Of a stretch of 64,000 bases of DNA, positions 11,503-46,902 are shown in pieces. Within the stretch, counting starts at the first letter, position 1. Each line of letters opens with the position of its first letter. Position numbers and translations under genes: made by a program. Source of the stretch: an uncultured Prevotella sp. (GTDB lineage Bacteria > Bacteroidota > Bacteroidia > Bacteroidales > Bacteroidaceae); contig ONGP01000010.1 in assembly GCA_900317405.1 (NCBI GenBank), positions 33,273-97,272 on the forward strand, written 5' to 3'. Under the pieces are notes generated by a model. That model was not told the DNA's origin. It worked only from the letters and a program-made list of their open reading frames with translations, and did not search any database.

Positions 11503-14118
11503 TGCGAAGGGACACGTCTCGCATCGCCTACGATCATCAGTAGGCGTGAACTGCAACTCGGAATTGAGTATCTCGGCAAGCAGACTATCCAATCGATTAA
11601 TATATTCGTCTGAGTACGTAGCTATATCAGATACGGGTTCTTTTCCAATTTTAAGCGTCGGATCGTAATCTTCGCCTCCAGCATGCTGTATAAACATTAG
11701 ACAAGGAGATACTGCTTGTTTTATATTGGTACGAACTATATGAGCATAGAGGAACGTCTGCAGATAATAGTCGCTATGTTCGGCTACAGCCTCGGATGTG
11801 AAGATAGCCTCGATATTGGGCATAGGCTTAAGAACCTTTGAACCTGTCTTATAATCGATTACGCGAATATACTCTTTTCCTGATTCGCTGTCTATGATAG
11901 CATCCAGACGATCGATGATTCCGCCGACCTTAAGCGGTCCAACTGTACTATCAACCCACTTCTCAAGTCCAAGTATACGGAATGGTGTACGTTTGCGGTC
12001 GAACTCAAGGAGTTGGCGTATATACTTGATGATGACCTCGCGATTGATAAGTTGTAAACCATCAAGTGGCGGCAATGGGCGTGAAGGATCTTCTATTTTG
12101 AAGAGCTCCTGCTTAATAGCCTCGTCTACGCATCGTTCGATGGTGACCTCCTCTTTAAGCATATCATCAATCATCATCGAAGTGATGGTGTTCTGGGAGA
12201 ATCGCTCATAAAGCAGTTGTGCGGCCTTGTGGAATATGTTTCCAAACAGGCGATTGTCAATCATATCATCCTCTGTGCTATCCGGTTCGGAAATCTCGCA
12301 GACATAGCGGTAGAAGAATCGCAACTGACAACGTATGTAGGTGTTTATTGCCGTGGGACTGATACCTCCTTTGTTATTGGTAAAGCGCTGTTCCATTTGC
12401 CGTATAACCTCCGGTGTCTTCTTAATTGCTTTTGGAGAGTGTAGCTGTGGTGTCTGACCTGCCTTGAGGGTGTAGAACGAGATGGGTATCTTGTTCTCGA
12501 CCATAAGCTGTAACATAAAACGCGACATCTCTGCAGTCTTGCCATCGTTGGTAGCATTGTTGTAGAGTATGGTTACGTCCTTGGCACGTTGCAGTAGTCG
12601 GTGGAAATAGTGCTGATAGATGGCTACCTTGTAATCGACGGTAGTTAGTCCATAAGCTTTGCGCAGAGCATATGGAATGAACGACGTATCGTTGACGCCA
12701 CGCGGCATATTGCCCTCGTTGCACGAGAGAAGTAACACGTGGTCGAAATCAAGGTTACGTGTCTCGAGCACTCCCATCACTTGTATACCTTCTGCTGGTT
12801 CGCCGTGGAAGGGGATAGATGTGGAACCGATTAATTGAGTGATTAGTCGTTGCATAGTAATCACATCTACAGTAAGCGTACCGCTATCAACAAGTCCGCT
12901 TAACCTATTTAATAAGGTGTACATACGGAACAGGCTCTCAGTATCCAAAGGCGAATCGATGATATTGCTCTTAGATGTGGCGATAGTCTGGGTGATATTC
13001 AGTAGCCAATGTAGAAGTGGCTGAATCTCCATATATCGTTGATTGTAGAGATCATCGGGCATAAGTGATGCGTATGGATGGCGTTTAACAGTATCAATCC
13101 ATCTACGGGCAAACTGCTGCTTGCGTAGCGAGTAGCCATGCACCTGCATATTGATAAGTGTGGTGATAAGTGATGCTATCGAGGTCTGTGAAAGTGGATA
13201 TCCCGTCGTGATGTTTACTTTGTCCACACTTTCGGGCAGACAATGTATGACAGTTTGTAGCAGGCCTTCGTTGCAAAGTACTATTGCAGTCTTACGACCA
13301 TCGTTGATGCGATTACTATCAAGCCACTGACTTATGTATCGTGCCTGGATATTCTCGGTAGGAGCCGAGATGAAATTGATATGGGCAGGCGGAATGTCAT
13401 CGGAGTCTTGATAGAATAATGCCTTGCCCTGTGATTCTAATCTGCGGAAGAGTGTTTGCTCTACCTGCTGCATCAAGTTGAAACCTATAAACACATAAGT
13501 GTCGTACTCAAACTGGATGCTCTCATCGGTAGCAACTTTACGATACAATGCTCCCTCGTAGGCCATCTGTTTATCGGCCAGTTGTGCGTTATATTTTTGA
13601 TATATGTCGCCTATCTTACTCCATAGTCGCAGAAATCGCTCCTTGAGTTCGGAATTATGTTCTTCAGTGAAATTGCTGAAGAATCTTTTTATCATCTCAG
13701 TCTGTTCGGGAGTGAGATACGATGTGTCATCAAGTTCATGGATGTCGCTAAGGTTGGCCAGTACTTTATCTGCTGGAGCCATGTTCTTATCAAGATCATC
13801 AAAATCAGATAAAAGAAGTTGGCCCCAACCATAGAAGTGGTCCAATGTCTCATCGATACCCGTACATGCGGTAAATACGCGATGTAGTTCGCATACCAAC
13901 AGGATAGGATCGGCCACCTGGAGTGATGAGTGCGATCTAAACAAATCGCTGATAGTGATATATGCAGGACTCCAGATGGGTTTGCCTGCCAATCGGGCTA
14001 AATGCTCATTCAGAAAGAGCGATGCACGTTTGTTGGGGAACACCACAGCTACACGTGATAGATTGGTGCCGTATCTCGAAATCAAATCTTCGGCTACATG
14101 TTCTAGGAAACTCTTCAT
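11485..14118 (-). CDS. AddB/RexB-like PD-(D/E)XK nuclease
   Basis: VFPNKRA, ETRNLDF, ISPTAINTY, IDRLD, IDYKTG, terminal Cys cluster; coupled to the UvrD-type gene. Confidence 0.85.
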   Translation of the reverse strand: MKSFLEHVAEDLISRYGTNLSRVAVVFPNKRASLFLNEHLARLAGKPIWSPAYITISDLFRSHSSLQVADPILLVCELHRVFTACTGIDETLDHFYGWGQLLLSDFDDLDKNMAPADKVLANLSDIHELDDTSYLTPEQTEMIKRFFSNFTEEHNSELKERFLRLWSKIGDIYQKYNAQLADKQMAYEGALYRKVATDESIQFEYDTYVFIGFNLMQQVEQTLFRRLESQGKALFYQDSDDIPPAHINFISAPTENIQARYISQWLDSNRINDGRKTAIVLCNEGLLQTVIHCLPESVDKVNITTGYPLSQTSIASLITTLINMQVHGYSLRKQQFARRWIDTVKRHPYASLMPDDLYNQRYMEIQPLLHWLLNITQTIATSKSNIIDSPLDTESLFRMYTLLNRLSGLVDSGTLTVDVITMQRLITQLIGSTSIPFHGEPAEGIQVMGVLETRNLDFDHVLLLSCNEGNMPRGVNDTSFIPYALRKAYGLTTVDYKVAIYQHYFHRLLQRAKDVTILYNNATNDGKTAEMSRFMLQLMVENKIPISFYTLKAGQTPQLHSPKAIKKTPEVIRQMEQRFTNNKGGISPTAINTYIRCQLRFFYRYVCEISEPDSTEDDMIDNRLFGNIFHKAAQLLYERFSQNTITSMMIDDMLKEEVTIERCVDEAIKQELFKIEDPSRPLPPLDGLQLINREVIIKYIRQLLEFDRKRTPFRILGLEKWVDSTVGPLKVGGIIDRLDAIIDSESGKEYIRVIDYKTGSKVLKPMPNIEAIFTSEAVAEHSDYYLQTFLYAHIVRTNIKQAVSPCLMFIQHAGGEDYDPTLKIGKEPVSDIATYSDEYINRLDSLLAEILNSELQFTPTDDRRRCETCPFASLCRS

Positions 14119-32979: not shown

Positions 32980-35103
32980 ATGAAAAAGTTTCTTTTGTTG
33001 CTAGTCGCTCTGGTGTCGTGCTGCTCGCTGTGGGCCGATGATAAGGTCGACACCAGCATCCCCGTCACAACCGAGGTTAAGGACAAGACCTTTGTACTCG
33101 TAATCTCAAACGAGAACTACAAGCACGAGGAGTCAGTACCCTTTGCCAACAACGACGGAGAAGTGTTCGCTGTGTATTGTGAGAAGACACTCGGTGTGCC
33201 CGCCAAGAACATCCACCGTGTGCCCGATGCCACGCTCAATGATATGAATCATGAGCTCGAGTGGCTCACCCAGGTGGTGAAGGCTTTCGACGGACAAGCC
33301 CATGTTATCTTCTACTATAGTGGTCACGGTATGCCCGATGAGGCCAGCAAGGAGGCCTATCTGCTGCCTACCGATGCCTATAGCAGCGACCCTAAGAGCG
33401 GACTGAGCACAAAGAAACTCTACGACCGACTGAACAGCATGCAGGCCCAGCGCACACTGGTGTTCCTGGATGCCTGTTTCAGTGGATCCAAGCGTGATGG
33501 CGAGATGATGGCATCTAGCCGTGGTGTGGCCATCAAGGCCAAGACCGAACCTGTAAAGGGCAATATGGTTGTGTTCTCGGCTGCCCAGGGCAACGAGACC
33601 GCCTATCCTTACAAGGGCAACAATCACGGTATGTTCACCTACTTTGTGCTCAACAAGCTTAATGAGACTGGCGGTGCTGTATCGCTGGGCGAACTGAGCG
33701 ATTACGTCATCAAGGAGGTTAAGCAGAAGTCGATTGTCGACAACGGCAAGAGTCAGACCCCAAGCATCAACGGTCCTGTGGGCGATGACTCATGGCGCTC
33801 GTGGCGATTTGCCGACCGCGCTGCCAAGAGTCGCGAGACACGTGTGGCCAATGCCACCACCAAGGCCAGCAAGGATGGTCCTGCCATCCCGTCGAGTGCC
33901 GAGCCTTACACCATCCCCGATTACACCATCGAGGGTGCAGGCACAGGCGTTCAGGGCACCTATCTGGTAAAGGTTACTATGGATGCTAAGCGTGTTGAGG
34001 ATGCCACCGATCAGGAACTCACCAAGGCTGCCATTCATGGCGTGCTGTTCCGTGGATTCGAGAGTGGTGCCAACCGTCAGCACCAGCGTCCGTTGGCTGG
34101 TAGTCCGCTCGTAGAGACTCAGAACTCTGGTTTCTTCAGCCACTTCTTCCATCAGCCTTACCAGCAGTACGGTCAGGCCGAGACCACCTCTCGACAGGTT
34201 GTACGTATGGGCAAGAATCAGTTCAAGGTGTCGGCCACTGTCACCGTCAAGGAGGATCAGTTGCGCAAGGACCTCACCACACAAGGCATACTTAAGGGCG
34301 ACAAGCTTGGCGAGAGCAAGCGCCCCACACTGATGGTTATCCCAGCCGACTCGTGGTGCACGGCCAATGGATTCGTCAAGGACGATGAGAATGGCAAGAA
34401 GGTATCCGACTTCGAAGCTGCATGGAGCGGCAGTCAGGATCTGTTCAGCGTTGTGTCTAAGATAGGCGAGCTTATGTCCGACCGCGGATTCCCGCTCAAG
34501 GATCTCTCGCAGTCGCTCAAGAATGTTGGTGCCGCACGTACCGACATGTTCCTTGAGGTGGGATGGAAGATCAACAAGACTGGTCCTAAAAACTCTGTTA
34601 CCTACACCCTGCGTGGTCTCGATGCCTATACCATGAAGCAGGTGGCTAATACATCGGGTACCGGCAAGCCGTCGTTCTCTGCCGAAGTTCCTGTACTACT
34701 CGAAGAGGCAGTGCTTGAGCGTATGGACAACTTTGCCGACCAGCTGCAGCAGCACTTCGACGATCTGCTTAAGAATGGTCGTGAGGTAGCAGTAACCATC
34801 CGCTGTGAGGGTGCGCAGAGTCTTGAGTTCGAGTACGACGGTAAGGAGCTCTCTGAGGTTATCGACGACTGGATGGCGCTCAACACTCTGAATCACAGCT
34901 ATAGCATGGGCGACAGTAGCGATAAGTTTGTAGAGTTTGAGCAGGTTCGCATTCCGCTCTATGCTCAGAATGGTATGGCCCTCGACACCCGTCGCTGGCT
35001 CAACGGCCTGCGCAAGATGCTTAGCGCTGAGCCTTACAACATAGCCGTGCAGATAATCTCCGACGGCTTAGGACACGCCACGCTTGTGCTTGGAAGCAAA
35101 TAA
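32980..35103 (+). CDS. Secreted caspase-family (C14) peptidase fused to two further domains (C-terminal one DUF6175-like)
   Basis: Signal peptide; YSGHG and LDACFSG catalytic dyad; HGMFTY; KRPTLMVIPAD start of the C-terminal domain. Confidence 0.75.
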   Translation: MKKFLLLLVALVSCCSLWADDKVDTSIPVTTEVKDKTFVLVISNENYKHEESVPFANNDGEVFAVYCEKTLGVPAKNIHRVPDATLNDMNHELEWLTQVVKAFDGQAHVIFYYSGHGMPDEASKEAYLLPTDAYSSDPKSGLSTKKLYDRLNSMQAQRTLVFLDACFSGSKRDGEMMASSRGVAIKAKTEPVKGNMVVFSAAQGNETAYPYKGNNHGMFTYFVLNKLNETGGAVSLGELSDYVIKEVKQKSIVDNGKSQTPSINGPVGDDSWRSWRFADRAAKSRETRVANATTKASKDGPAIPSSAEPYTIPDYTIEGAGTGVQGTYLVKVTMDAKRVEDATDQELTKAAIHGVLFRGFESGANRQHQRPLAGSPLVETQNSGFFSHFFHQPYQQYGQAETTSRQVVRMGKNQFKVSATVTVKEDQLRKDLTTQGILKGDKLGESKRPTLMVIPADSWCTANGFVKDDENGKKVSDFEAAWSGSQDLFSVVSKIGELMSDRGFPLKDLSQSLKNVGAARTDMFLEVGWKINKTGPKNSVTYTLRGLDAYTMKQVANTSGTGKPSFSAEVPVLLEEAVLERMDNFADQLQQHFDDLLKNGREVAVTIRCEGAQSLEFEYDGKELSEVIDDWMALNTLNHSYSMGDSSDKFVEFEQVRIPLYAQNGMALDTRRWLNGLRKMLSAEPYNIAVQIISDGLGHATLVLGSK

Positions 35104-36521: not shown

Positions 36522-36603
36522 AGTTGATAATTTATTAATGATAACGTAATTGCCTGCAAAGATACGATGATTATCTGAAACTTGCAAGTGTTTTGCAAGA
36601 AAA

Positions 36604-36724
36604 ATGCCTCGCATCATTCTTCCGATGCGAGGCATTTGCGTTATAGTTGTTATGTGTGATATAATCAGGAGTGCTCGACTCTGTGATCGTCTTGATCGCA
36701 CTTTAATAAAGATCAATGACCTGT
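36604..36724 (-). repeat. Cassette 3' end, copy A: 61-bp structured element plus terminator
   Basis: Matches 37552-37667; core 36664-36724 differs from 37607-37667 at 3 positions. Confidence 0.9.
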
Positions 36725-36743
36725 CCCCGTGATTCAGCATCGC

Positions 36744-36905
36744 TTAGAAGAAGTTCTTTGCGGGGATGTGGCGTATCACGTTGTCATCGCCACAGACGAT
36801 GACGTCCTCATTGTTACGAGCCTTCTCCTCCAGCATCTCACGTTCGGCAATCTCCAAGCCACGCGTGATCTTCTCTACCATCTGGTTGTGTTCAGTGCTT
36901 GACAT
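36744..36905 (-). CDS. 53-aa partner of the zeta-like ATPase (not in the ORF track)
   Basis: MSSTEHNQMVEKITRGLEIAEREMLEEKARNNEDVIVCGDDNVIRHIPAKNFF; overlaps the stop of the upstream gene. Confidence 0.75.
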   Translation of the reverse strand: MSSTEHNQMVEKITRGLEIAEREMLEEKARNNEDVIVCGDDNVIRHIPAKNFF

Positions 36906-37473
36906 ACGCTTCTATCTTTTTAAATTCAACTTCATTGTTTATTATCATTTTCTGATTCATACCGCCTGTAGCAATGATACTACGTGGGGTGATACTGTTA
37001 TCAACTAATATCCAGGTGTCAACAATCGGCATATAAATGCGGAACAGGTTATCAATGCCTTCGTAGTAGCGACGGATGATAATATCGCGGGGTATGTTAT
37101 GACCACCTTTGCTTACTCTCTCGGCCACGCGCTCAATAGCTTGCTCGGGTGTTTTCAGCCAGAAGAAAAGTAGCGTAACTTCATATCCCTGCTGATGAGC
37201 TTTCTCAATTAGTTTAAAGTAGGAACGAGTGGCGAGTGTTGTCTCTATAGAGAAACTTTCGTTGCGGCGCAACAGCTCAGCGATGCGGCTAAGCATCAGG
37301 CGTCCTGCCTCAATCGCCACGCTCTCAGGATTGAACGGTGACAGTCCGCGGGCTATCTCATCTGCATTGACGAACTCACGACACTGGAGTATCTTAGGCA
37401 ACACACTATATGATGCTGTTGTCTTTCCCGCGCCGTTTGGCCCTGCGATGATGTATAGATGTTTATTCTCCAT
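36892..37473 (-). CDS. Zeta-toxin-family / AAA_33 P-loop protein
   Basis: IIAGPNGAGKTT, FVNADEIA, ETTL, RVAERVSKGGH; start set at MENKHL. Confidence 0.85.
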   Translation of the reverse strand: MENKHLYIIAGPNGAGKTTASYSVLPKILQCREFVNADEIARGLSPFNPESVAIEAGRLMLSRIAELLRRNESFSIETTLATRSYFKLIEKAHQQGYEVTLLFFWLKTPEQAIERVAERVSKGGHNIPRDIIIRRYYEGIDNLFRIYMPIVDTWILVDNSITPRSIIATGGMNQKMIINNEVEFKKIEAYVKH

Positions 37474-37477
37474 TTCT

Positions 37478-37583
37478 GGCTGCAAAGATACGAATAAGTG
37501 AGTAATAATCCAAATTTTTTTCAGTATTTTCGATTGTGAGCAATTAAAAGGATGCCTCGCGTCATCACGATGCGAGGCGTTTG
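37478..37583 (-). repeat. 106-bp terminator+promoter direct repeat, copy 1
   Basis: Identical to 38628-38733 except 2 nt; contains the GCCTCGC stem and TATCTTTG -7 box (37483-37490). Confidence 0.92.
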
Positions 37584-37667
37584 CGTTAGTTGTTATGTAT
37601 GATATGATCAGGAGCGCTTGACTCTGTGATCGTCTTGATCGCACTTTAATAAAGATCAAAGACCTGT
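37552..37667 (-). repeat. Cassette 3' end, copy B: 61-bp structured element plus terminator
   Basis: Matches 36604-36724. Confidence 0.9.
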
Positions 37668-37691
37668 GATCTTGTGGTTAGAGATAGTATG

Positions 37692-37913
37692 TTAAGAAAC
37701 CTTTGCTGTCTTAAGTTCGTTCTCTAAAAAGGAATACACGTAGCCTGAACTCTGATAATAAAGACCTGTAGCGTCGTCCTGCAGACGCTGGTAGGTTTCA
37801 CTATTGATGACGGTGGCTAACGCTTGCTCCATCGTAATCTGAGGGTCGTCATCCATCAGCCGCAGAGCCAGGTGCTTCACCATGTCAAGCTTCATCTGTT
37901 CTTTCTCGTTCAT
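37692..37913 (-). CDS. Small helical protein (DUF3791-like)
   Basis: SETYQRL...TGLYYQS motif; overlaps the DUF3990 stop. Confidence 0.7.
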   Translation of the reverse strand: MNEKEQMKLDMVKHLALRLMDDDPQITMEQALATVINSETYQRLQDDATGLYYQSSGYVYSFLENELKTAKVS

Positions 37914-38383
37914 AGTCGCTTTAAGATTTTGATGGCACGCTCTGTGCCAAAGTAATATTGGAAGGTGATACCATTCATGTTACGCAAATTGTGTACGAGT
38001 GTTGGTAGATCGATTGTGCCATTCTCGAACTTCCATAGCTGAACGCCAACACGGTCATTGGCAATGGGACCGATTACTATGTCATAATCGTGGGCAGGTT
38101 CTTGACTGGCATTGTTGCGGTTCAACAGGATGAAATTGGCCCACTCCTCAGTATAATCATCGAAGCGTAGTACTCTTAATTCAGCCATAGCTTCGTCATC
38201 AACCTCATAGGTTAGTACGGTGGGCACACCGCTTTCCAACTGCTCCACCTTGATCTTTGCCATGGCCATAGCCTGAGCGTACTCTCGGCTTAAGTAGAAA
38301 CCCTGACCGAAGTCCTTGTTGGGTTTCGACTTGCGAAGATCGATATCGCCAAAGTCGGCGTTTGTGCCGTGGTAGAGTATCAT
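37910..38383 (-). CDS. DUF3990-family protein (predicted ADP-ribosyltransferase-like fold)
   Basis: MILYHGT, KDFGQGFYLS, YDIVIGPIAND, QYYF. Confidence 0.82.
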   Translation of the reverse strand: MILYHGTNADFGDIDLRKSKPNKDFGQGFYLSREYAQAMAMAKIKVEQLESGVPTVLTYEVDDEAMAELRVLRFDDYTEEWANFILLNRNNASQEPAHDYDIVIGPIANDRVGVQLWKFENGTIDLPTLVHNLRNMNGITFQYYFGTERAIKILKRL

Positions 38384-38604
38384 ACTAGTGCGCCTCCTTT
38401 CCTGTGGCAATACTCGGCCATATCGCTTACCATCGACTGGAACGACTGCGTGTGGCAGTAGTCGTAGTGTTCGTCGACGAACTTGATGGCGCCGAAGCGG
38501 CTCAGATAGTTAAACGCCTGCTTAAGCGTCAGTCCGAAGTGCCGTCCGAACTCTGTGACAAAGATAATTGTCCATTCCATCTTATCTTTAAAGCTATATG
38601 CCAT
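38380..38604 (-). CDS. DUF3791-family protein
   Basis: EFGRHFGLTLKQAFNYL...HYDYCHTQS. Confidence 0.78.
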   Translation of the reverse strand: MAYSFKDKMEWTIIFVTEFGRHFGLTLKQAFNYLSRFGAIKFVDEHYDYCHTQSFQSMVSDMAEYCHRKGGALV

Positions 38605-38627
38605 AATCCTTATTTATTATTGTTTAC

Positions 38628-38733
38628 GGCTGCAAAGATACGAATAAGTGAGTAATATTCCAAATTTTTTTCAGTATTTTCGATTGTGAGCAATTAAAAG
38701 GATGCCTCGCGTCATCACGATGCGAGGCATTTG
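38628..38733 (-). repeat. 106-bp terminator+promoter direct repeat, copy 2
   Basis: Matches 37478-37583 at an offset of 1150 bp. Confidence 0.92.
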
Positions 38734-38737
38734 TTTG

Positions 38738-38953
38738 CTAGACTTTTAGCTTGTCTAGTGGATAACCGTCAAAGAGTGCAATCAGTGGAACATCGAGTGC
38801 CTCGGCAAAGCGATCCAAAACGTCTATGCTTGGATTTTTACGTCCACAGCTGATGGCGTTAACATACTGGCGGCTTACATTCAGTCTTACGGCTAAATCA
38901 TTGTCGGTCATCTTCTTCTTGTGAAGAATAGCCTTAATATTTGTTTGTCTCAT
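38738..38953 (-). CDS. XRE/Cro-C1 HTH regulator
   Basis: LAVRLNVSRQYVNAI..GRKNPSIDVLDRFAEALDV; divergent from the replication module; TAACTTTG box at 39001-39008. Confidence 0.88.
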   Translation of the reverse strand: MRQTNIKAILHKKKMTDNDLAVRLNVSRQYVNAISCGRKNPSIDVLDRFAEALDVPLIALFDGYPLDKLKV

Positions 38954-39135
38954 CTAATTATATTTCTGCTTTGTCGACTCCGTTGTCGGCAAATGGATGG
39001 CAAAGTTACAACAAAAAGCTCATTTTTGGATGCATATTTGGCATTTCTTTAAAACAAAGAAACCCCAGAGATTTCTTTCTCGTAAATCAACGTAAAATAT
39101 ACGAGAATATACTTGTTTTCGCTTGTTTAATGTTG

Positions 39136-39257
39136 TACCTTTGCAGTGGTTATCCGGAAGACCATAAACATAACAAAACATTAAGAATTATGAATAGTCA
39201 ACAAAACTCAAACAGATTATTAATGTCGGGCGTCACTCAACAAGTGGCGCCCTTCTT
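39136..39257 (+). promoter_or_regulatory. Promoter (-7 box TACCTTTG) followed by a leader hairpin, possible attenuator
   Basis: Box at 39136-39143; stem 39228-39237/39243-39252 followed by TTCTT. Confidence 0.55.
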
Positions 39258-39302
39258 AGGATTGCGTTCAACCCAAATAATAACTCTAACATATATAGTA
39301 TT

Positions 39303-39812
39303 ATGCAAAAGATAATAGTTGACATGAGCATGCGCCTCTCTGCGCATTTCACTCTCGGCGAGATGTGCTACTCTGGCACGGCTGCTAATCACAAGCCGAA
39401 ACCGATACCCAACATCCCCCTGAAGCAGAACATAGTGGCGCTGCAGAATCTGGTGGACCGCTGCCTGGAGCCTATGCGTATGGCCCTAAAGCTGCCAATA
39501 CAGGTTAACAGCGGCTACCGCTGTCCGCTGGTAAACACGCTGGTGCACGGCGTGTCCACATCGCAACACATGCGTGGCGAGGCCGCCGATGTGACCATCC
39601 CGGTGAAGCACCGCCCATTCAGCGTGACCACCGACGAGCAGGCCGCCCGACTGCTGCTGATGTACGCCAAACAGTATGCCGACTACGACCAGCTGATACT
39701 GGAGCACTACACTGCCAGCAACGGCCGCGAAGTATGGTGGCTGCACATCAGCTGCCGCATAGACTACCGCCGCAACCGCCACCAAGTTATTAACGATTTG
39801 ATAAAACGATGA
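39303..39812 (+). CDS. Peptidase M15A (endolysin-like Zn peptidase)
   Basis: HFTLGE, NSGYRC, SQHMRGEAAD, DQLILE, WLHIS; no signal peptide. Confidence 0.88.
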   Translation: MQKIIVDMSMRLSAHFTLGEMCYSGTAANHKPKPIPNIPLKQNIVALQNLVDRCLEPMRMALKLPIQVNSGYRCPLVNTLVHGVSTSQHMRGEAADVTIPVKHRPFSVTTDEQAARLLLMYAKQYADYDQLILEHYTASNGREVWWLHISCRIDYRRNRHQVINDLIKR

Positions 39813-40504
39813 ACAGCGGATTCTTGAAACTACAGCGCAACTTGTTATCGATGCCAGGCATCGCTGACATGTACTCGGTTGAGGGGGCTACAGGCTTGGG
39901 CCTGTACGTTTCTATCAACCTGTACCTCTCTCACTGCGAGGGCGGGTGGGGTGTCTATACCGGTACGCAAATGACGGTATTGGCCGTTGAGGGCCATCGC
40001 CGTCGTACGGAAGTGAAGCGTGTAATCAACGACTATGGCCTGTTTGTGGTCGACGATAAAGAGAAGCGTTTTACCAGTCACTGGATGCAGCAACAATTCA
40101 ACAAGGGTGCACGAAAGTTGCGCCAAAGTTGCGGCACTCCCGCGCGTACTTATAATCCCCGCGCGGAAGAAATAGAATTAGATATAGAAAAAGAAAATAA
40201 AGAAAAAGGCACGAAGGTTCCCGATATGATCGGACCTTCGGCCTACGAGACAGTAAGCCGCGCGGGCCTGCGATGCGGCAAGCATGGCGAACCTGTGCCC
40301 TGGTGGGCGCCGCCGCAGCAGGATGTGTACTCGGTGTGGAGTCTGGTGGCCGACGCCTGGGTGACACCATCGCAGATAGACAGCCAGGCCGAACGCGACA
40401 AACATCAGGCGATGCAGCCCCAGGACTTTATGATGAAGACCGCCTGGGAGCTACTGCCCGAAGACGAACATAACAGAATACAGGATTATGCAAAACGACA
40501 ATAG
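39809..40504 (+). CDS. Putative replication initiator/organiser-like protein (DUF4373-like N-terminus)
   Basis: GFLKL...EGATGLGLY N-terminus and charged linker EEIELDIEKENKEK, as in phage initiators; translationally coupled on both sides. Confidence 0.5.
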   Translation: MNSGFLKLQRNLLSMPGIADMYSVEGATGLGLYVSINLYLSHCEGGWGVYTGTQMTVLAVEGHRRRTEVKRVINDYGLFVVDDKEKRFTSHWMQQQFNKGARKLRQSCGTPARTYNPRAEEIELDIEKENKEKGTKVPDMIGPSAYETVSRAGLRCGKHGEPVPWWAPPQQDVYSVWSLVADAWVTPSQIDSQAERDKHQAMQPQDFMMKTAWELLPEDEHNRIQDYAKRQ

Positions 40505-42398
40505 TTTTATACCACAAAAGCAGTGGGAACAAACCGGCACGGGCTACTATATAGTGCCCATCGACAAGCTGGACGTGAAGGGGGCCCAGAAGGATAGTGA
40601 CAATAAGCCCAACCTGAAAGCGCTGGGCAAGACGATAGTGCGCTGCAAATGTCCCGACTGCTCCGACAGTCGTAAGCACAAGGACGAGCACTGCGTAAGG
40701 CTCGACCTGACCACGGGTATGGGCAAGTGCTACAACTGCGGCTTCCAGTTCATCATCGGCACTAAGGTGGCCGACTACAATAAGAAGCGCGGCTATCAGA
40801 AAAAGAACTTCAAGCTGCCCGATACCACCAAGCTGCGACCGCTCGACGGCATCGCCATCGACTATCTGCTGAAGCGGAAGATACAGCCTCGGACGGCCGC
40901 GAAGGCTGGTGTGCGTTCGGCCACCCGTACCATCGACGGCATCGACCGCTCGTGTCTGGCTTTCACCTATCGCGAGGGCACTAAGGTGGTCAACATCCAG
41001 TATAAGACTACCAGCAAGGACTTTGCCGTTGAGACCGACTGTGAACTGATACCCTGGAACATCGATGCCGCCATAGGGCAGGACACTCTGATCATCACCG
41101 AGGGCATGATGGATGCGCTGGCACTGATGGAGTGCGGTTTCGACAACGTGATATCGGTATCGAACGGTGCCAAGAGCGATGTGCGAACCTTCGACCGATT
41201 CCGTTATAGTCATCTCGACGGCATTCGTACCATCTATCTGGCGGGCGACATGGACGAGGAGGGTGTGGAGCTGCGCAACAGGCTGGCCATGTATTTCGGC
41301 GAAGCCCGTTGCCGTATAGTGGAGTGGCGAGTGGACGCCGACGAGCAGTCGATAACAGCCAAGGATGCCAACGAGATGCTGATAGAACACGGCCCCGACG
41401 CTGTACTGCAGTGCATCAACCATGCACAGCCGTGCCCCATCATCGGTGTAGAGACCATCAACGAATATCGCGAGCGTGCCAAGCAGATATGGGAGCACGG
41501 CATAGAGCCGGGCAAGACTGTGGGGTGGGGCGAGTTCGACGAACACATACAGTTTGAGCCAGGTCGCACAGTAATCATCGTGGGAGAGCCTAACACGGGT
41601 AAGAGCACCTTTGCCGACGACCTGATACTAAACCTGGCGCTGCAGCACGGATGGAAGGCGGCGCTCTATTCGCCTGAGATGTTTCCACCCGAGCGCCACA
41701 TAGAGCGACTGGCCACCACCATCGCCGGGCGCAAGTTTCGCAAGGAGTTAGTCGAGACCGAGCGTGGCATAGACTATCACAAGCCGCAGATACCTGAGCG
41801 AATGGCCGACCGCATACTCGACTGGATGAGTGAGAACATATTCTTCGTCACCGAGACGTCGGGGCGCACCATACACAAGCTGCTACATCGTGCCGAACAG
41901 CTGCAGCAGCGCTATGGTGTGCAGCAGTTGCTGCTGGATCCGTTCAACTACATCCAACTGCCTGAGGGTGCCAAGAGCGACACGATGAAGATAGGCGATG
42001 TGCTGGCCGAGATAGAGCTCTGCGCCCACCGCACGGGACTGCTCATCTTTGTGGTGGTGCATCCATCCAAGCCGCAGAAAGGCGAGCAGATAGATTCGCT
42101 GTACAATGCCAGTGGTTCGGCCGAGTTTCGCAACCGTGCCGACTACGGTCTGGTGCTGGTTAATGACGATAAGGCCTATGCGCATCGCAGTTATCATCTG
42201 CTGAAGGTGATAGTGGATAAGGTGCGCGATGATGCCATGGGACATAAGGGCGTGTGCCATCTGTCGTTCGATCCCAGCAACTATCGTCATGGCATGGTGC
42301 AGACCATCCACCTTACGGGCGACGTGAATCAATACAACATCCTGGACATCAGCCCCCACTGCTGGCTAGACCGAACCCAAGAACCAACATTGTTTTAA
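40488..42398 (+). CDS. Bifunctional primase-helicase, T7 gp4/Twinkle type (Zn finger + TOPRIM + SF4 helicase)
   Basis: CPDC/CYNC, IITEGMMDAL, LAGDMDEEG, KDANE, GEPNTGKST, LLLDPFN, VVHPSK, SGSAEF. Confidence 0.92.
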   Translation: MQNDNSFIPQKQWEQTGTGYYIVPIDKLDVKGAQKDSDNKPNLKALGKTIVRCKCPDCSDSRKHKDEHCVRLDLTTGMGKCYNCGFQFIIGTKVADYNKKRGYQKKNFKLPDTTKLRPLDGIAIDYLLKRKIQPRTAAKAGVRSATRTIDGIDRSCLAFTYREGTKVVNIQYKTTSKDFAVETDCELIPWNIDAAIGQDTLIITEGMMDALALMECGFDNVISVSNGAKSDVRTFDRFRYSHLDGIRTIYLAGDMDEEGVELRNRLAMYFGEARCRIVEWRVDADEQSITAKDANEMLIEHGPDAVLQCINHAQPCPIIGVETINEYRERAKQIWEHGIEPGKTVGWGEFDEHIQFEPGRTVIIVGEPNTGKSTFADDLILNLALQHGWKAALYSPEMFPPERHIERLATTIAGRKFRKELVETERGIDYHKPQIPERMADRILDWMSENIFFVTETSGRTIHKLLHRAEQLQQRYGVQQLLLDPFNYIQLPEGAKSDTMKIGDVLAEIELCAHRTGLLIFVVVHPSKPQKGEQIDSLYNASGSAEFRNRADYGLVLVNDDKAYAHRSYHLLKVIVDKVRDDAMGHKGVCHLSFDPSNYRHGMVQTIHLTGDVNQYNILDISPHCWLDRTQEPTLF

Positions 42399-42571
42399 TG
42401 GAATACATAACTTGTACGCGCTGCGGACAGACACTGCCGCGCAGTAAATTAGAACGCATGAAGACGGGCACCTACCGCCGGGTATGCAACCACTGCAAGT
42501 GGCTCTACTACGTAAAGCCCGCCCGCGACCGCCGCATCCTCCGCGAGCTAGCCGCCCGCAAAAACCTCTAG
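42398..42571 (+). CDS. 57-aa basic Zn-ribbon protein
   Basis: MEYITCTRC...VCNHC; ATG overlaps the helicase stop (TAATG). Confidence 0.7.
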   Translation: MEYITCTRCGQTLPRSKLERMKTGTYRRVCNHCKWLYYVKPARDRRILRELAARKNL

Positions 42572-42572
42572 C

Positions 42573-42652
42573 GAAAAGTAGCTTTTCACCACACGAAAAG
42601 CTACTTTTTGCATTCCAAAACCTTACTTATCGCAAGATGAATAGTTACTTTT
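42573..42652. repeat. Four quasi-palindromic 14-bp boxes at a 22-bp period (second array)
   Basis: Boxes start at 42573, 42595, 42617 and 42639; same consensus as 4761-4840. Confidence 0.75.
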
Positions 42653-42670
42653 TGTGAAGCAGCTACATGC

Positions 42671-42748
42671 TACTGCAAGGGGTGTAGCGTTGTACTGCTG
42701 TACTGCAAGGGGTGTAGCGCTGTACTGCTGTACTGCAAGGGGGGTAGC
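42671..42748 (+). repeat. 30-bp tandem repeat, about 2.6 copies
   Basis: TACTGCAAGGGGTGTAGCG(T/C)TGTACTGCTG at 42671 and 42701, partial copy at 42731. Confidence 0.92.
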
Positions 42749-42754
42749 CCTAAG

Positions 42755-43232
42755 AAAACGTCCTGAGCTCGGAGGCCGGATGTAATATTATCGTAATCAT
42801 TCGAAGAACTCGCTTCGCTCAAACAGCTTCTCATGTCGATTTGCTTGTCTCGCTTTCGCGACACAAGAATCGAAGAAGATTCCGATAATAGTACATCCTA
42901 TAAATACCTCCTCGTGCGGAATGTTTTCTTAAGGCTACACCCCTTGAAACATAGATAGTTTGTTTTACTACCGCACTTCGTGCTCCATGTTTTATCGTCG
43001 CGAAGCTCCTCAAAAACATTCCGCACGAAGAGGTCTTTAGAGGAATGCAAATTCTTTGAATCGATATTGAGTCTCTGATTGCGGAACGCAATCTGAGGAA
43101 CGAAATACGAAATGCTGTTTGAGCGTAGCGAGTTCATTGAGTGATTTGAAGAATTTGTGTTCCGGCCTCTGAGCTCAGGACGTTTTTGCACCTTTCTTTG
43201 CTTCGTTTCTTTCAGTGATGAAAGAAATGAAG
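42755..43232. other. Large nested-hairpin non-coding element (structured ssDNA or ncRNA)
   Basis: Stems 42755-42780/43161-43186, 42795-42827/43114-43146, 42831-42841/43059-43070, 42897-42927/43013-43043, plus a terminal hairpin at 43201-43232. Confidence 0.85.
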
Positions 43233-43361
43233 AACCATTTGCTAATATAATAATGCATGCTTAATTTTGGCTAACTGCATAATGCCGATTTGCTTGGAAT
43301 CGGCTGAAAAATGTTGTATCTTTGCAGTGCATTTAGGAAATGATGCTGCAGGGCAGGAAAC

Positions 43362-43871
43362 GCAGTATTCTACCGATTAAGTCAGGTGACTGCACCTAAA
43401 GCCAAGGGCTATGGCAAATGGTACCCACGTGCGGTAATGACCGAGACCGTGGAGACCAACGAACTCGCTACAATCATGCAGCGCAACTGCACACTGAAAC
43501 GAGCTGATATCCTGGCCGTAATCAGCGAACTGATTGAGACTATGCAGGATCAGCTGCAGAACTCAAAGCGAGTAAAGCTGAATGGCTTCGGATCATTCAA
43601 GATCGGCATCAAGGGCGAGGGCGCCGACAGCGCAGCCGAGTTCAGCATTGGCAAGAACGTGAAAGGTCTGCACGTGCTGTTTATGCCTGAGGTAAAGAAG
43701 GACAGCAACGGTCAGCTGCAGAAGACGTTCATCAGCGGATGCAGCGTGCAGGAGGCACCAAAGAACGGCGTTGACACCACTAAGCCACAGACTGGACAGA
43801 ACACCAGCAACGGCTCAAGCAGCAACGGCGGTGGCAACACAGGTGCCGACGATGGCATGGACCAGAATTAG
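43362..43871 (+). CDS. HU/IHF-like DNA-binding protein (Bacteroidetes type); native ATG appears missing
   Basis: GKWYPRAV, DILAVISEL, VKLNGFGSFKIGI, Gly/Asn-rich tail; homology-like residues AVFYRLSQ precede the GTG at 43386. Confidence 0.85.
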   Translation, partial: AVFYRLSQVTAPKAKGYGKWYPRAVMTETVETNELATIMQRNCTLKRADILAVISELIETMQDQLQNSKRVKLNGFGSFKIGIKGEGADSAAEFSIGKNVKGLHVLFMPEVKKDSNGQLQKTFISGCSVQEAPKNGVDTTKPQTGQNTSNGSSSNGGGNTGADDGMDQN

Positions 43872-43909
43872 TGTTTAACGATTAAAAGTAAAGAAAGGAG
43901 GAATTAATT

Positions 43910-44125
43910 ATGCTGAGAAACTGGCGAACGATCGCAAAGATCGTAGTGGCAGTACTAACTGCCTTGTTAGGAACAGTAGGCGCGACACTAGCAGATAGTG
44001 TCGCGCCCTTGTGTTATTTCTTGCGGAAGTACAGGATTGCTAGTACTATTGATAGTAGTAGCAGTGCTGCCGAGACGCAGGCTAGTATCCAGACTGTGTG
44101 CTGGGTGGCTATCTGTTGCTTGTAG
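43910..44125 (+). CDS. Smalltalk-like short membrane peptide (first ~30 aa); ORF runs on antisense into the next gene
   Basis: WRTIAKIVVAVLTALLGTVGA directly after HU, with an AAGGAGG-containing leader. Confidence 0.6.
   Translation: MLRNWRTIAKIVVAVLTALLGTVGATLADSVAPLCYFLRKYRIASTIDSSSSAAETQASIQTVCWVAICCL
43979..44007. terminator. Perfect 12-bp hairpin between convergent genes
   Basis: GGCGCGACACTA-GCAGA-TAGTGTCGCGCC. Confidence 0.6.
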
Positions 44126-45099
44126 CCGTTGGCTTTGTCCTGTAGCTTGTTCAGATTCTGCGTCATACGCACCACCTCATCGCTACCTAGCTGCAGCACC
44201 ATGGCATTGTCGTGGGTTACAAGAGCTGAGCTGAGCATGGTCTCCTTGGGGTACCTGTCGCCGTCGAGTATGGCGATGGCCAGTTTTATCAGTTCGTCGC
44301 CACGTGTGGGGTAGATATATGATGCATCAAGCTGGCCTTCGGCCACCTTATGGATACCGCCATCAGGTCCTGGCAGTGCATCGATACCACACAGCAGCGG
44401 CAGACGGGCATTAAGCTCCTTGAATGCCTTACGGGCTCCGAGTGCAGAACGGTCGTTATGACCGAACACGGCATCGACAGTGTTCAGGTCGCCTTGCCAT
44501 TTCTTTACACCATCATAAGCCGCTTCTTCAGTCCAGTCGCCTTCTATCTCGGCCACCACCTTGATGTCGGGATAATCTGCTATGGCTACGTGGAATCCGT
44601 TGTAGCGTTCCTCGGCAGGCTTAGAGCCTTTAGGTCCCGTAACCTCGATGATATTACCCTTGCCGCTTAGTTTCGAGGCTATGTATTCGCCCATCATGTG
44701 TCCCATCTCGTAGTTGTCGGCACTCACAAATGAGGTGTACTTACGCGATTCGGTTTTACGCTCGAACACGATGACGGGTATGCCCTTGTCATGTGCGCGA
44801 TCGATGGCTGGAGATGACGACGAAAGCTGGTTGGGGGTGACAATCAGCAGATTGATGCCGCTGGCCACCAGACTGTCTATCTGTTTGCTCTGAACCTCGG
44901 GATCGGAGTTGGCATCTGCAAATCGCAACTCTACACCCTCGTGGAAATTGGCCTCTGTCTTCATCTCGGCATTCTGCCAATCGTGCCAGATATCGACAGA
45001 ACACTGCGATACACCTATTATATATTTTGGTGAGTCCTGCTTGCAACTCATAAGCAGAATTGCAGCCAGCATTAGTAGGTAGATAGATTGTTTCTTCAT
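44014..45099 (-). CDS. RbsB-type sugar-binding sensor domain with C-terminal TM; stand-alone or truncated hybrid two-component sensor
   Basis: IGVSQCS, SADNYEMG, GHNDR, GIDAL, YPTRG; ends right after the TM helix. Confidence 0.78.
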   Translation of the reverse strand: MKKQSIYLLMLAAILLMSCKQDSPKYIIGVSQCSVDIWHDWQNAEMKTEANFHEGVELRFADANSDPEVQSKQIDSLVASGINLLIVTPNQLSSSSPAIDRAHDKGIPVIVFERKTESRKYTSFVSADNYEMGHMMGEYIASKLSGKGNIIEVTGPKGSKPAEERYNGFHVAIADYPDIKVVAEIEGDWTEEAAYDGVKKWQGDLNTVDAVFGHNDRSALGARKAFKELNARLPLLCGIDALPGPDGGIHKVAEGQLDASYIYPTRGDELIKLAIAILDGDRYPKETMLSSALVTHDNAMVLQLGSDEVVRMTQNLNKLQDKANGYKQQIATQHTVWILACVSAALLLLSIVLAILYFRKK

Positions 45100-46407: not shown

Positions 46408-46902
46408 TTAAGCGTCGGCAAATATCTTGCCGTCGTCGAGAGTAATCTGCAACTTGGTGTACTCGCTGTGGAAATCGTTCTTTAGGCGATCCAGATAGCG
46501 AGCGCACTCCCATTTGCACATGGGCAGATCGTGCAGCAGATAGTTGCCACAAGCCTCAGGACGTGTGGCAGGCACTTCGTTCTGGGTGAGAATCCACTCC
46601 AGACACTCGATGGTGAGCTGACGCATGTCATCTACGGTGTAGTTGCCTGTCATGATGATATACATGCCAGTGAGGCAACCCATCGGACCTACGTATACTA
46701 CATCATCCTTAGCACGCGAGTTGCGGAACCATGTAGCCATCAGGTGCTCTATGCTGTGAATGGCAGCAGGAGCTACAGCAGGCTCCTTGTTGGGTTCGGT
46801 GATGCGCAGGTCGAATGTGGTAAAACCCTTATCTACACGCGATACGTAGATGCCTGGCTTAAGCTGTGTATGATCAATTGTAAAACTCTGTATTACTTCC
46901 AT
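46408..46902 (-). CDS. luxS: S-ribosylhomocysteine lyase
   Basis: SFTIDH, HSIEH, GPMGCLTG, CGNY. Confidence 0.95.
   Translation of the reverse strand: MEVIQSFTIDHTQLKPGIYVSRVDKGFTTFDLRITEPNKEPAVAPAAIHSIEHLMATWFRNSRAKDDVVYVGPMGCLTGMYIIMTGNYTVDDMRQLTIECLEWILTQNEVPATRPEACGNYLLHDLPMCKWECARYLDRLKNDFHSEYTKLQITLDDGKIFADA

Follow-up and report, generated by a model that had tools for sequence, protein, structure and literature searches.

Phage T7 carries the lysozyme gene 3.5 just upstream of gene 4 among its class II genes, the P4 satellite combines its alpha primase-helicase and ori/crr sites with defence hotspots, an integrase and genes for capsid size and helper control, and the gene transfer agent (GTA) of Bartonella has a phage-derived origin of run-off replication. 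In the Staphylococcus aureus pathogenicity islands (SaPIs) the iterons of the origin lie immediately downstream of the replication gene, some of them oppositely oriented (PMC9371898). In Bacteroides, Xu et al. noted in 2007 blocks of two to five genes, led by a homologue of T7 lysozyme and present in up to 10 copies per genome, which they called phage (PMC1892571). This passing remark is the sole description of such cassettes in the literature we searched, where we also found no function described for smalltalk, DUF4248, BT4734 or HU-HIG cassettes, nor any phage satellite of Bacteroidales. As to individual components, the HU-HIG clade was defined by Burroughs et al. in 2017, with almost no conserved gene linkage and a proposed role in conflicts with invasive DNA (PMC5499826), and BT4734-like (VirE_N) primases have been tied to mobile elements and defence systems (PMC11724360). 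Here we analyze a stretch of 64,000 nucleotides from an uncultured Prevotella, henceforth the window (positions 33273-97272 of contig C28 in the source genome G000, an assembly of 2.55 Mb in 70 contigs that is 86% complete). We propose that positions 39120-44016 of the window probably belong to a family of replication cassettes, compact, derived from phage and devoid of an integrase, whose members lie in the chromosomes of rumen Prevotella-type Bacteroidales and related genera; the copy described here would be a satellite-like replicon.

In its layout the cassette is reminiscent of the pri-rep-ori units of the SaPIs and other phage-inducible chromosomal islands (PICIs), with which it shares a repressor-controlled operon, primase and helicase functions, a winged-helix origin binder (here putative), repeats right after the replication genes (here candidate iterons), the lack of a polymerase of its own, and a small, chromosomal and phage-derived nature. 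Unlike these islands, it lacks an integrase, att sites and genes for packaging or capsid remodelling, it uses a superfamily 4 (SF4, gp4/DnaB-like) helicase with a Toprim primase as against their SF3/MCM-like Rep, it carries the winged helix on a separate protein, and it has additional HU-HIG, micro-peptide and cell-wall hydrolase genes. Like the "phage" blocks of 2007 and the HU-HIG-smalltalk-VirE-amidase cassettes, it is a short, phage-like, multi-copy block without virion genes and of unexplained function, sharing with them a cell-wall hydrolase, HU-HIG, a peptide of about 33 residues and a primase-helicase. It differs from them in having a gp4-type primase-helicase along with DUF4373-like and Zn-ribbon proteins, and not only VirE_N/VapE/DUF3874, in having an M15 peptidase as against Amidase_2, and in not lying beside capsule genes here. 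It is the gp4-type variant of the integrase-less replication cassettes of Bacteroidales.

With T7 gp4 and Twinkle the cassette shares the same three-domain enzyme with all its motifs, and with T7 a wall hydrolase encoded just upstream among the replication genes. Unlike T7, it is chromosomal and stable and lacks a polymerase, an RNA polymerase and structural genes. Nor is it part of a recognisable phage, as no phage or IMG/VR protein recovered exceeds 31-32% identity and none of these relatives shares its gene order: the best relatives of the primase-helicase among INPHARED phages reach at most 31% identity, and in IMG/VR a single-protein scan recovered no close relative and a profile scan matches of at most 32% identity with no shared gene order. 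P4-type satellites are similarly compact replicons with a fused primase-helicase, a short-repeat origin (a candidate one here) and a variable hotspot that often holds defence genes, but P4 itself has an integrase, capsid-size and helper-control genes and a different class of helicase. The idea shared with the Bartonella GTA is that of a phage-derived origin firing within the chromosome; no linked capsid or packaging cluster was found here.

Two conserved blocks around a variable slot

Comparison of related loci showed that the cassette consists of two conserved blocks, A and B, around a variable cargo slot. The gene order M15 peptidase, initiator-like protein, primase-helicase, Zn-ribbon protein, slot, HU-HIG and smalltalk recurs at 92%, 78% and 73% nucleotide identity. 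The 92% identical relative, locus L080, matches the window over 39214-42655, or from about 39120 in a looser alignment, and over 43260-44016, and differs outside and between these segments; block A ends on its right with an array of short boxes, where homology with L080 stops at 42655, and the cassette ends at 44016, where homology with L080 stops in both contexts. The features of the window copy and of its left neighbour are:

38738-38953, minus strand: XRE/HTH_3 regulator (HTH_3, E 5e-10), divergent from the operon
39120-39302, plus strand: operon promoter and leader of about 155 nt, the left end of conserved block A, aligning with L080 from about 39120
39136-39143, plus strand: Bacteroidetes-type -7 box TACCTTTG, shared with L080
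39228-39252, plus strand: GC-rich leader hairpin followed by TTCTT, conserved with L080
39303-39812, plus strand: predicted Peptidase_M15_3 cell-wall hydrolase (Pfam E 1.4e-12, 48.2 bits against a cut-off of 23.2; PHROG 894 "endolysin", E 2.6e-29)
39809-40504, plus strand: putative initiator-like protein of 231 residues (weak Lin1244_N/DUF4373 match, E 0.004, 18.3 bits against a cut-off of 25)
40488-42398, plus strand: predicted T7 gp4/Twinkle-type primase-helicase (Toprim_4/Toprim_2; DnaB_C, E 1.3e-8; PHROG 239, E 4e-82 over residues 37-599)
42398-42571, plus strand: predicted Zn-ribbon protein of 57 residues (CxxC...CxxC), with 54-89% identical copies directly after the primase-helicase in nine distinct loci
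42574-42654, plus strand: three iteron-like 14-nt boxes, an inverted pair (42574-42587/42595-42608) and a third, direct copy about 44 nt downstream
42671-42760, plus strand: 30-bp tandem repeats, 2.6 copies (Tandem Repeats Finder score 142 for 42671-42748; core CAAGGGGnGTAGC)
42755-43232, no strand assigned: head-to-head dimer of a palindromic repeat, about 480 nt, a passenger in the variable slot (left unit 42755-42928, copy-specific apex 42929-43009, right unit 43010-43186, terminal hairpin 43200-43232)
43260-43362, plus strand: HU promoter region, the start of block B, aligning to L080, L081 and L083, with a -7 box TATCTTTG at 43317-43324
43386-43871, plus strand: HU-HIG DNA-binding protein of the glycine-rich-tail subclade (E 2.4e-20, 73.3 bits against a cut-off of 26.2)
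43910-44125, plus strand: smalltalk micro-protein open reading frame (ORF) of 71 residues (family-like part about 43910-44011; NF033879, 26.2 bits against a cut-off of 24.7; DUF6486)

An earlier note on this stretch had listed an XRE gene, an overlapping four-gene operon, boxes, 30-bp repeats, a large hairpin and HU-like and smalltalk-like genes, and all of these are present; the genes of block A overlap, in order, by 4, 17 and 1 nt. As to the joint recurrence of these components, for which it had suggested a search, the genes of blocks A and B do recur in the relatives, but the hairpin and the XRE gene are not conserved. The more general picture of a recurrent cassette of replication genes, wall hydrolase and DNA-binding protein, with origin-like repeats beside the replication genes, gains support from the contexts of the relatives and from their box arrays after the Zn-ribbon gene.

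The slot differs from copy to copy. In L080 it spans about 2 kb with three unrelated genes for membrane or secreted proteins, including a DUF805 gene, in the 73% identical L083 it holds a 141-residue ORF, one unit of the palindromic repeat and a 37-bp tandem repeat of 2.9 copies, and in L149 an inositol-phosphatase gene. In five loci of two genomes of the same genus (G001 and G216) it opens with a BT4734_N/VapE/DUF3874 (VirE-type) gene and continues with ORF6N, AbiC-like, Fic/RhuM or HTH genes, with HU about 6 kb downstream; a tblastn search detected no VirE remnant in the slot of the window. In L081 and L150 the HU block is inverted and lies on the other side.

At E 1e-30 or better, searches with the primase-helicase recovered 114 clusters of homologues with identities of 99% down to 25%, nearly all from metagenome assemblies, with the closest named homologues labelled Prevotella sp.; the metagenome runs containing the window stretch were mostly from cattle gut or rumen. 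A gp4-type homologue was present in 38 of 401 genomes of the family (E 1e-20 or better), in 13 of 35 genera, with up to three copies per genome. An HU-HIG gene lies within 8 kb of the primase-helicase in most close loci, and an HU-HIG-like gene within this distance in 11 of 20 distant loci from other genera (about 30% identity), often 0.8-1.1 kb downstream.

The surroundings of the cassette also vary with each copy, those at 92%, 78% and 73% identity being bounded by different housekeeping genes, and include SusC/D, RmuC, FtsX with a radical-SAM gene, LpxA-like, fimbrial and cadherin-like genes. Loci L150 and L151 have an identical primase-helicase and share 4.7 kb at 97.5% identity, diverging exactly at the HU stop codon. 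Both of their contigs break off about 600 bp beyond the small gene downstream of the helicase, as they would at a repeat. In the window, G+C content is 55-57% over 40-42 kb as against about 45-50% in the flanks. The patchy distribution, variable position, multiple copies, near-identical copies with different flanks and raised G+C content point to a mobile or recently mobile element, and because of them the cassette does not look like the domesticated system that had been suggested for it.

No gene that could move the cassette was recovered. There was no match to the PF00589 integrase anywhere on the 117-kb contig C28, no tRNA gene in the window, and no integrase, transposase, terminase, capsid or relaxase in a Pfam scan of 37 flanking ORFs (which covered 1-11.5 kb in part only); the absence of these functions had been noted earlier and holds in these scans. 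Likewise, Pfam and PHROGs revealed no packaging or capsid-redirection gene in the cassette or among the window ORFs scanned. Among the relatives, no integrase was called within about 10 kb in L080-L084 and L149-L153, and an integrase-like match lay about 8-9 kb from the primase-helicase in two of 20 distant loci. Because it has neither integrase nor packaging genes the cassette is not a canonical satellite, and because no capsid, portal or terminase gene occurs among the scanned window ORFs, to which the search for such genes was confined, it is not a GTA. The minimal satellite, which the earlier note had entertained as an alternative, fits the data better than its domesticated system.

The five conserved genes of the cassette are under purifying selection. 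The ratios of nonsynonymous to synonymous substitution rates (dN/dS), obtained by the Nei-Gojobori method for the window copy against L080 and L083, were 0.12 (M15), 0.23 (initiator-like protein), 0.13 (primase-helicase) and 0.20 (HU) against L080, and 0.20-0.36 for all five genes against L083 (dS about 0.8-1.2), with M15 at 0.36. The values over both comparisons were 0.23-0.26 for the initiator-like protein and 0.13-0.25 for the primase-helicase; the Zn-ribbon protein had a ratio of 0.28. Ratios near 1, which the earlier note had named as telling against its own proposal, were not observed.

This bears on the possibility that the cassette is what is left of a prophage or integrated plasmid, inert, in decay and without a function today. 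The window copy does have lesions (a deleted HU start, a smalltalk ORF without a stop codon of its own and an inserted repeat), the primase-helicase of the closest isolate relative contains a TAG stop, and M15 is degraded in L081. However, dN/dS of 0.12-0.36 over five genes, even at dS of about 1, the fully intact primase-helicase motifs and a gene order kept from 92% to about 30% identity across several genera make decay a highly improbable account. RNA contigs also cover the operon: metatranscriptome contigs lie on the primase-helicase in two runs from different studies, one of cattle and one of sheep, and the sheep run additionally covers parts of the M15, initiator-like and Zn-ribbon genes, with carry-over of DNA being possible in both.

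Replication genes and a candidate origin

The primase-helicase is predicted to be a full gp4/Twinkle-type SF4 enzyme, combining a Cys4 zinc domain, a Toprim core and an SF4 helicase domain with all expected motifs. In an alignment of 14 sequences, C55, C58, C81 and C84 of the zinc domain, E205, D254 and D256 of the Toprim domain and G371-K372-S373, D484, H525 and R580 of the helicase are invariant; by analogy, H525 would be the sensor His and R580 the Arg finger. The closest primase-helicase in a complete genome (G216:C1:531696-533360, loci L031/L062, 44% identity) has an in-frame TAG, and the two other copies in that genome are intact.

The M15 protein retains the zinc-ligand motif (SxHxxGxAxD and a later His), seen here as STSQHMRGEAAD and a later WWLH, which together with the profile matches places it in the predicted Peptidase_M15_3/phage endolysin family; on inspection it shows no evident N-terminal hydrophobic segment or signal peptide. 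The earlier statement that the catalytic motifs are not decayed stands for the primase-helicase and M15, but decay is seen elsewhere in the copy, where the HU start is deleted and smalltalk lacks a stop codon.

The initiator-like protein is conserved in 11 relatives; Lin1244_N matches in relatives have E-values of 3e-4 or are likewise weak. Its N-terminal winged-helix region is followed by a variable linker rich in Lys and Glu, and this by a conserved C-terminal domain that bears the motif VPWWAPPQ. In the AlphaFold model (mean predicted local distance difference test score, pLDDT, 75.6) the N-terminal winged-helix domain is confidently modelled; a Foldseek search of the PDB with this model returned generic winged-helix matches only (best E 0.07, with one DnaD model at rank 37), and a profile search of the PDB returned nothing. 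Prediction of a complex with the primase-helicase gave a score of 0.49, the best control being 0.00, with contact agreement between runs of at least 36% and a partner pLDDT of at least 73. In calibration the mark was reached by 58 of 80 solved complexes and two of 110 mismatched pairs, and scores of 0.60 or less that reach it came from only seven of the 80 solved complexes and from both mismatched pairs; the model is thus a weak hint that the two proteins may be in contact.

Eleven tblastn rows for the Zn-ribbon protein correspond to the nine loci listed above, as L031/L032 duplicate L062/L061, and by this adjacency the protein is a partner that the primase-helicase has kept across loci.

In most of the lineages compared, arrays of short boxes lie directly after the Zn-ribbon gene, with a sequence specific to the lineage. 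The boxes are GAAAAGCTACTTTT in the window and L080, where an inverted pair is joined by a single direct copy, and CATAGCTTT in L081 and L149, where some are spaced by 22 nt; L060 and L061 contain GAGCTATGCT four to six times, with a phasing of about 22 nt. Boxes of the sequence AGCTACG are present in L062, those of the sequence GAAACG in L063 and L064, and AGCTATGCT-type boxes in a lineage other than that of the window. An AGCTAY core with phasing of about 22 nt occurs in seven of the 10 loci compared, at 2-6 copies per 300 nt as against 0.3-0.6 expected; these seven loci amount to about six independent lineages, because L060 and L061 are near-identical copies from one genome. In the distant relatives of other genera (about 30% identity) the interval of 0.8-1.1 kb between the primase-helicase and HU genes holds repeats phased at 10 nt. 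On account of this comparative pattern the boxes at 42574-42654 are the best candidate for an origin or operator, and attention shifts from the large hairpin, which the earlier note had placed at the centre, to these boxes and to the layout of two blocks and a slot.

The 30-bp repeats downstream of the boxes present a different picture. Their core occurs in four copies as against 0.19 expected, and the repeat is absent from all 143 loci compared and from the rest of the genome. The last (third) copy, together with its inverted counterpart at 42934-42946, lengthens the stem of the left hairpin unit. With their GTAGC core these repeats could be added iterons, a reading tempered by their being unique to this locus and structurally tied to the inserted repeat; they are probably a filling of the slot. 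The same slot in L083 (13164-13272) has a different tandem repeat, of 37 nt, next to a single repeat unit, and this shares the G-rich core AAGGGGT with the 30-bp repeat of the window.

Based on the analogy with SaPI pri-rep-ori and P4 alpha-ori, a scheme for the cassette can be proposed. Once the operon is switched on, the winged-helix protein, the Zn-ribbon protein or both would bind the boxes just downstream of their own operon and load the primase-helicase, after which the host polymerase would copy the DNA. HU-HIG would act as an architectural protein, and possible roles of M15 and smalltalk include envelope remodelling, lysis or addiction. Replication from the box array is the activity that we consider most likely, held at a confidence slightly short of even.

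Upstream of these genes, the reading of the box at 39136-39143 as a promoter follows from the Bacteroidetes -7 consensus TAnnTTTG. Besides the GC-rich hairpin, the leader (39190-39302) contains a short upstream ORF, with a peptide (..RLLMSG.T.QVAPFL..) that L080 has conserved as well, and the two could constitute an attenuator or leader peptide. A 124-residue ORF at 38941-39315 was considered as a gene and is probably spurious, the stretch being the operon promoter and leader shared with L080.

The large hairpin as a dispersed repeat

Dispersed palindromic intergenic repeats include the enterobacterial repetitive intergenic consensus (ERIC), Correia and miniature inverted-repeat transposable element (MITE) types. 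The large imperfect hairpin of the window (42755-43186, about 430 nt) has a minimum free energy of -203 kcal/mol as against -118 ± 5 for shuffled sequences (z -15.9), and the earlier note took it to be the organizing element and origin of the module. We found instead that it is a repeat of this dispersed kind. A second dimer, 80-89% identical, occurs in the source genome at C31:9362-9952 with unrelated flanks, between queF and an oadA-like gene, where the distance is about 750 bp; in the related genome G436 the gap between queF and the gene of the oxaloacetate-decarboxylase alpha type is about 66 bp, indicating that this site is filled in one genome and empty in the other. Single units of about 180-230 nt are present three times in genome G113, none near cassette genes, and twice in G423, and one unit (12748-12967) occupies the slot of L083. 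The hairpin is absent from L080. With multiple contexts and presence/absence polymorphism, it is a MITE-like, dispersed palindromic repeat and a passenger in the variable slot of the cassette, not its organizing centre.

The unit adopts a rod fold, palindromic from end to end, with 93.8% of the cells paired. In the aligned units 17 of 51 pairs have changed on both sides, as against 9.3 ± 1.8 in shuffles, a value reached by none of 500 shuffles, and only 1-4 pairs do so when the partners are slid. Two of the pairs are invariant G-U, which hints that the structure is strand-specific and forms in RNA or single-stranded DNA, and RNA contigs cover parts of the unit. Two short sub-segments of it (about 30 and about 45 nt) are found in many copies across other genera of the family.

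Like ERIC, Correia and MITE elements, these are imperfect palindromes of 100-250 nt that are intergenic, vary in presence and absence and are transcribed within neighbouring RNAs; unlike them, they have no Rfam match and no clear target-site duplication or transposase, and they form a head-to-head dimer of about 480 nt. An Rfam 15 scan of 38000-45000 with E-values up to 1 returned nothing relevant for either the hairpin or the leader. A CT(T)AAG duplication is possible around the left unit, but none is consistent across the copies, at queF the filled and the empty site have diverged too far for the junction to be located, and no partner transposase was identified for the unit. The unit may be a structured dispersed repeat of rumen Prevotella that has not been described before. 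Summed over contigs, the depth across 42.8-43.4 kb was 4-40 times that of the flanks in two metagenomes, which reflects the many copies of the repeat across organisms, not amplification of the locus.

The hairpin was also the pivot of the proposal that the locus is a domesticated, GTA-like system, in which a de-repressed subpopulation replicates DNA from an origin in the hairpin region, coats it with HU and sets it free by lysis, smalltalk being the holin and M15 the endolysin. What the cassette encodes is compatible with this (replication genes, HU and a hydrolase of the PHROG "endolysin" group without an evident signal peptide), and purifying selection and the recurrence of the cassette without integrase or capsid genes are in line with it. 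Against it, the supposed origin is a dispersed repeat that lies elsewhere between housekeeping genes and is missing from the 92% identical relative, the XRE gene is not conserved, and the patchy, multi-copy and context-variable occurrence with raised G+C fits a mobile element. Nothing in the analysis spoke for the coating and release steps: smalltalk in the relatives is a protein of about 33 residues with a single hydrophobic helix and no match to a holin family, M15 is missing or degraded in some cassettes and smalltalk is lacking in others, and no packaging or capsid genes were found among the scanned window ORFs. We therefore regard this proposal as very unlikely.

Block B, neighbouring defence genes and the nature of the element

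The HU-HIG protein has the domain and the tail, rich in G, N and S, that characterize PF18291. In the window copy the gene is 5'-truncated. Compared with L080 and L083, about 66-74 bp are deleted, and with them the Shine-Dalgarno sequence, the ATG and the conserved N-terminal nine residues (MxVxYRLSQ), so that a GTG at 43386 is the first in-frame start. Metagenome contigs from other samples stop matching at 43363, the deletion junction, and because of this the deletion is possibly specific to the strain or, less likely, an assembly joint. No RNA contigs cover HU, which is uninformative as to its expression. The source genome has only about 12 HU-HIG genes in 2.5 Mb; most of them lie a few hundred bases from a contig end (C70, C32, C16, C6, C12, C37 and C45), and sequences of HU-HIG loci appear to be repeated and to break the assembly.

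Residues 4-26 of smalltalk match positions 4-26 of the 29-position NF033879 model, and a perfect terminator-like hairpin with a 10-bp stem (43979-44007) lies within the 3' end of its ORF. Since the cassette ends just past this hairpin, the stop codon of smalltalk is supplied by whatever flank follows, and a transcript ending at the hairpin would yield a smalltalk message without a stop codon.

On the left, the position of the XRE gene is occupied in the relatives by RteC-like or unrelated small ORFs of 86-111 residues. The gene is thus specific to the window copy by this comparison and not a conserved part of the cassette, and the view of it as a conserved switch is not supported. It is the first gene of a minus-strand array of toxin-antitoxin and defence cassettes on its left, to which it belongs as much as to the operon. 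This array, at 36557-38733, comprises small cassettes (DUF3791, DUF3990 and a 73-residue protein; a zeta-toxin-like ATPase) separated by a repeated terminator-plus-promoter element of about 106 bp. The repeated element, at 38568-38834, reaches about 10 times the flank depth in metagenome contigs, with many differing loose ends, and it also adjoins the cassette in L080. One contig joint, linking 38652 with 43305, is probably a repeat artefact and was discounted; one of its sides measures only 22 letters.

The wider flanks are composed of housekeeping genes as far as tested (methylmalonyl-CoA mutase, oxaloacetate decarboxylase, UvrA, AddAB-like, LuxS and cytochrome bd). Genomes G447, G433 and G436 conserve both flanks, the left one as far as 35517 and the right one starting at 46408, but on separate contigs, and a simple empty site for the whole accessory region of 35.5-46.4 kb could not be demonstrated in them. 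A gene with caspase and DUF6175 domains at 32980-35103 has two paralogues elsewhere in the genome and is missing in G447 and G433 between the same neighbours (methylmalonyl-CoA mutase and a 107-residue ORF). A periplasmic-binding-protein gene (44014-45099) abuts the cassette on the right and has a paralogue, 75-77% identical, on contig C23.

The company of defence genes raises the alternative that the cassette is the scaffold of a defence island, anchoring and perhaps controlling swappable anti-phage cargo, or that it acts in abortive infection through runaway replication and wall hydrolysis. Cargo in or beside related cassettes includes AbiC-like, AbiEii-like ATPase, ORF6N and Fic/RhuM genes, a YafQ toxin pair and a type IIG restriction enzyme with an SNF2/PLD helicase, and directly left of the window copy lie the zeta-toxin-like cassette and the DUF3791/DUF3990 pair, which has a match in the PADLOC candidate system PDC-M13; the proposal that HU-HIG acts in conflicts with invasive DNA (PMC5499826) also fits. 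However, none of the proteins of the cassette itself has a meaningful PADLOC match, some slots have no defence gene (only repeats in the window, membrane or secreted proteins in L080, the inositol phosphatase in L149), and any mobile element commonly co-locates with defence genes. We consider such a defensive role unlikely, if less so than either domestication or decay.

Several observations also weigh against the satellite-like replicon that we favour. The initiator assignment draws on a sub-threshold Pfam match and a generic winged-helix fold. The inverted box pair also folds as a weak terminator-like hairpin, because of which the boxes could be a terminator or operator and not an origin, and L083 has no boxes right after its Zn-ribbon gene. 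The slot was assembled through a high-copy repeat in a metagenome contig, so that its exact structure depends on the assembly. The cassette encodes no DNA polymerase, recombinase, packaging or transfer gene that would explain its spread. Finally, the window copy may be partly inactive, given its damaged HU start and a smalltalk ORF that has no stop codon inside the cassette and reads into the flank up to 44125, as the corresponding ORF of L080 (14916-15060) likewise does.

A bolder version of the replicon, which we offer as a long shot, is one that never excises: upon induction the box array would fire in place and over-replicate the cassette, its slot and the neighbouring defence or surface genes, serving as a gene-dosage switch or feeding DNA into the particles or vesicles of a helper, with HU-HIG shaping the origin. 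If this were true, it would define a new class of integrase-less mobile or semi-domesticated elements, common in gut and rumen Bacteroidales.

Counting the gp4-type helicase alone, cassettes of this class occur in roughly a tenth of the family genomes sampled, a family that includes dominant bacteria of the rumen and the human gut. They join a complete primase-helicase set and origin-like repeats with HU-HIG, a clade surveyed as nearly free of gene linkage (PMC5499826), and they carry swappable cargo, often defence genes, and yet no gene able to move them. Whether these cassettes replicate, and by what route they spread, would bear on gene flow and phage defence in rumen and gut communities.

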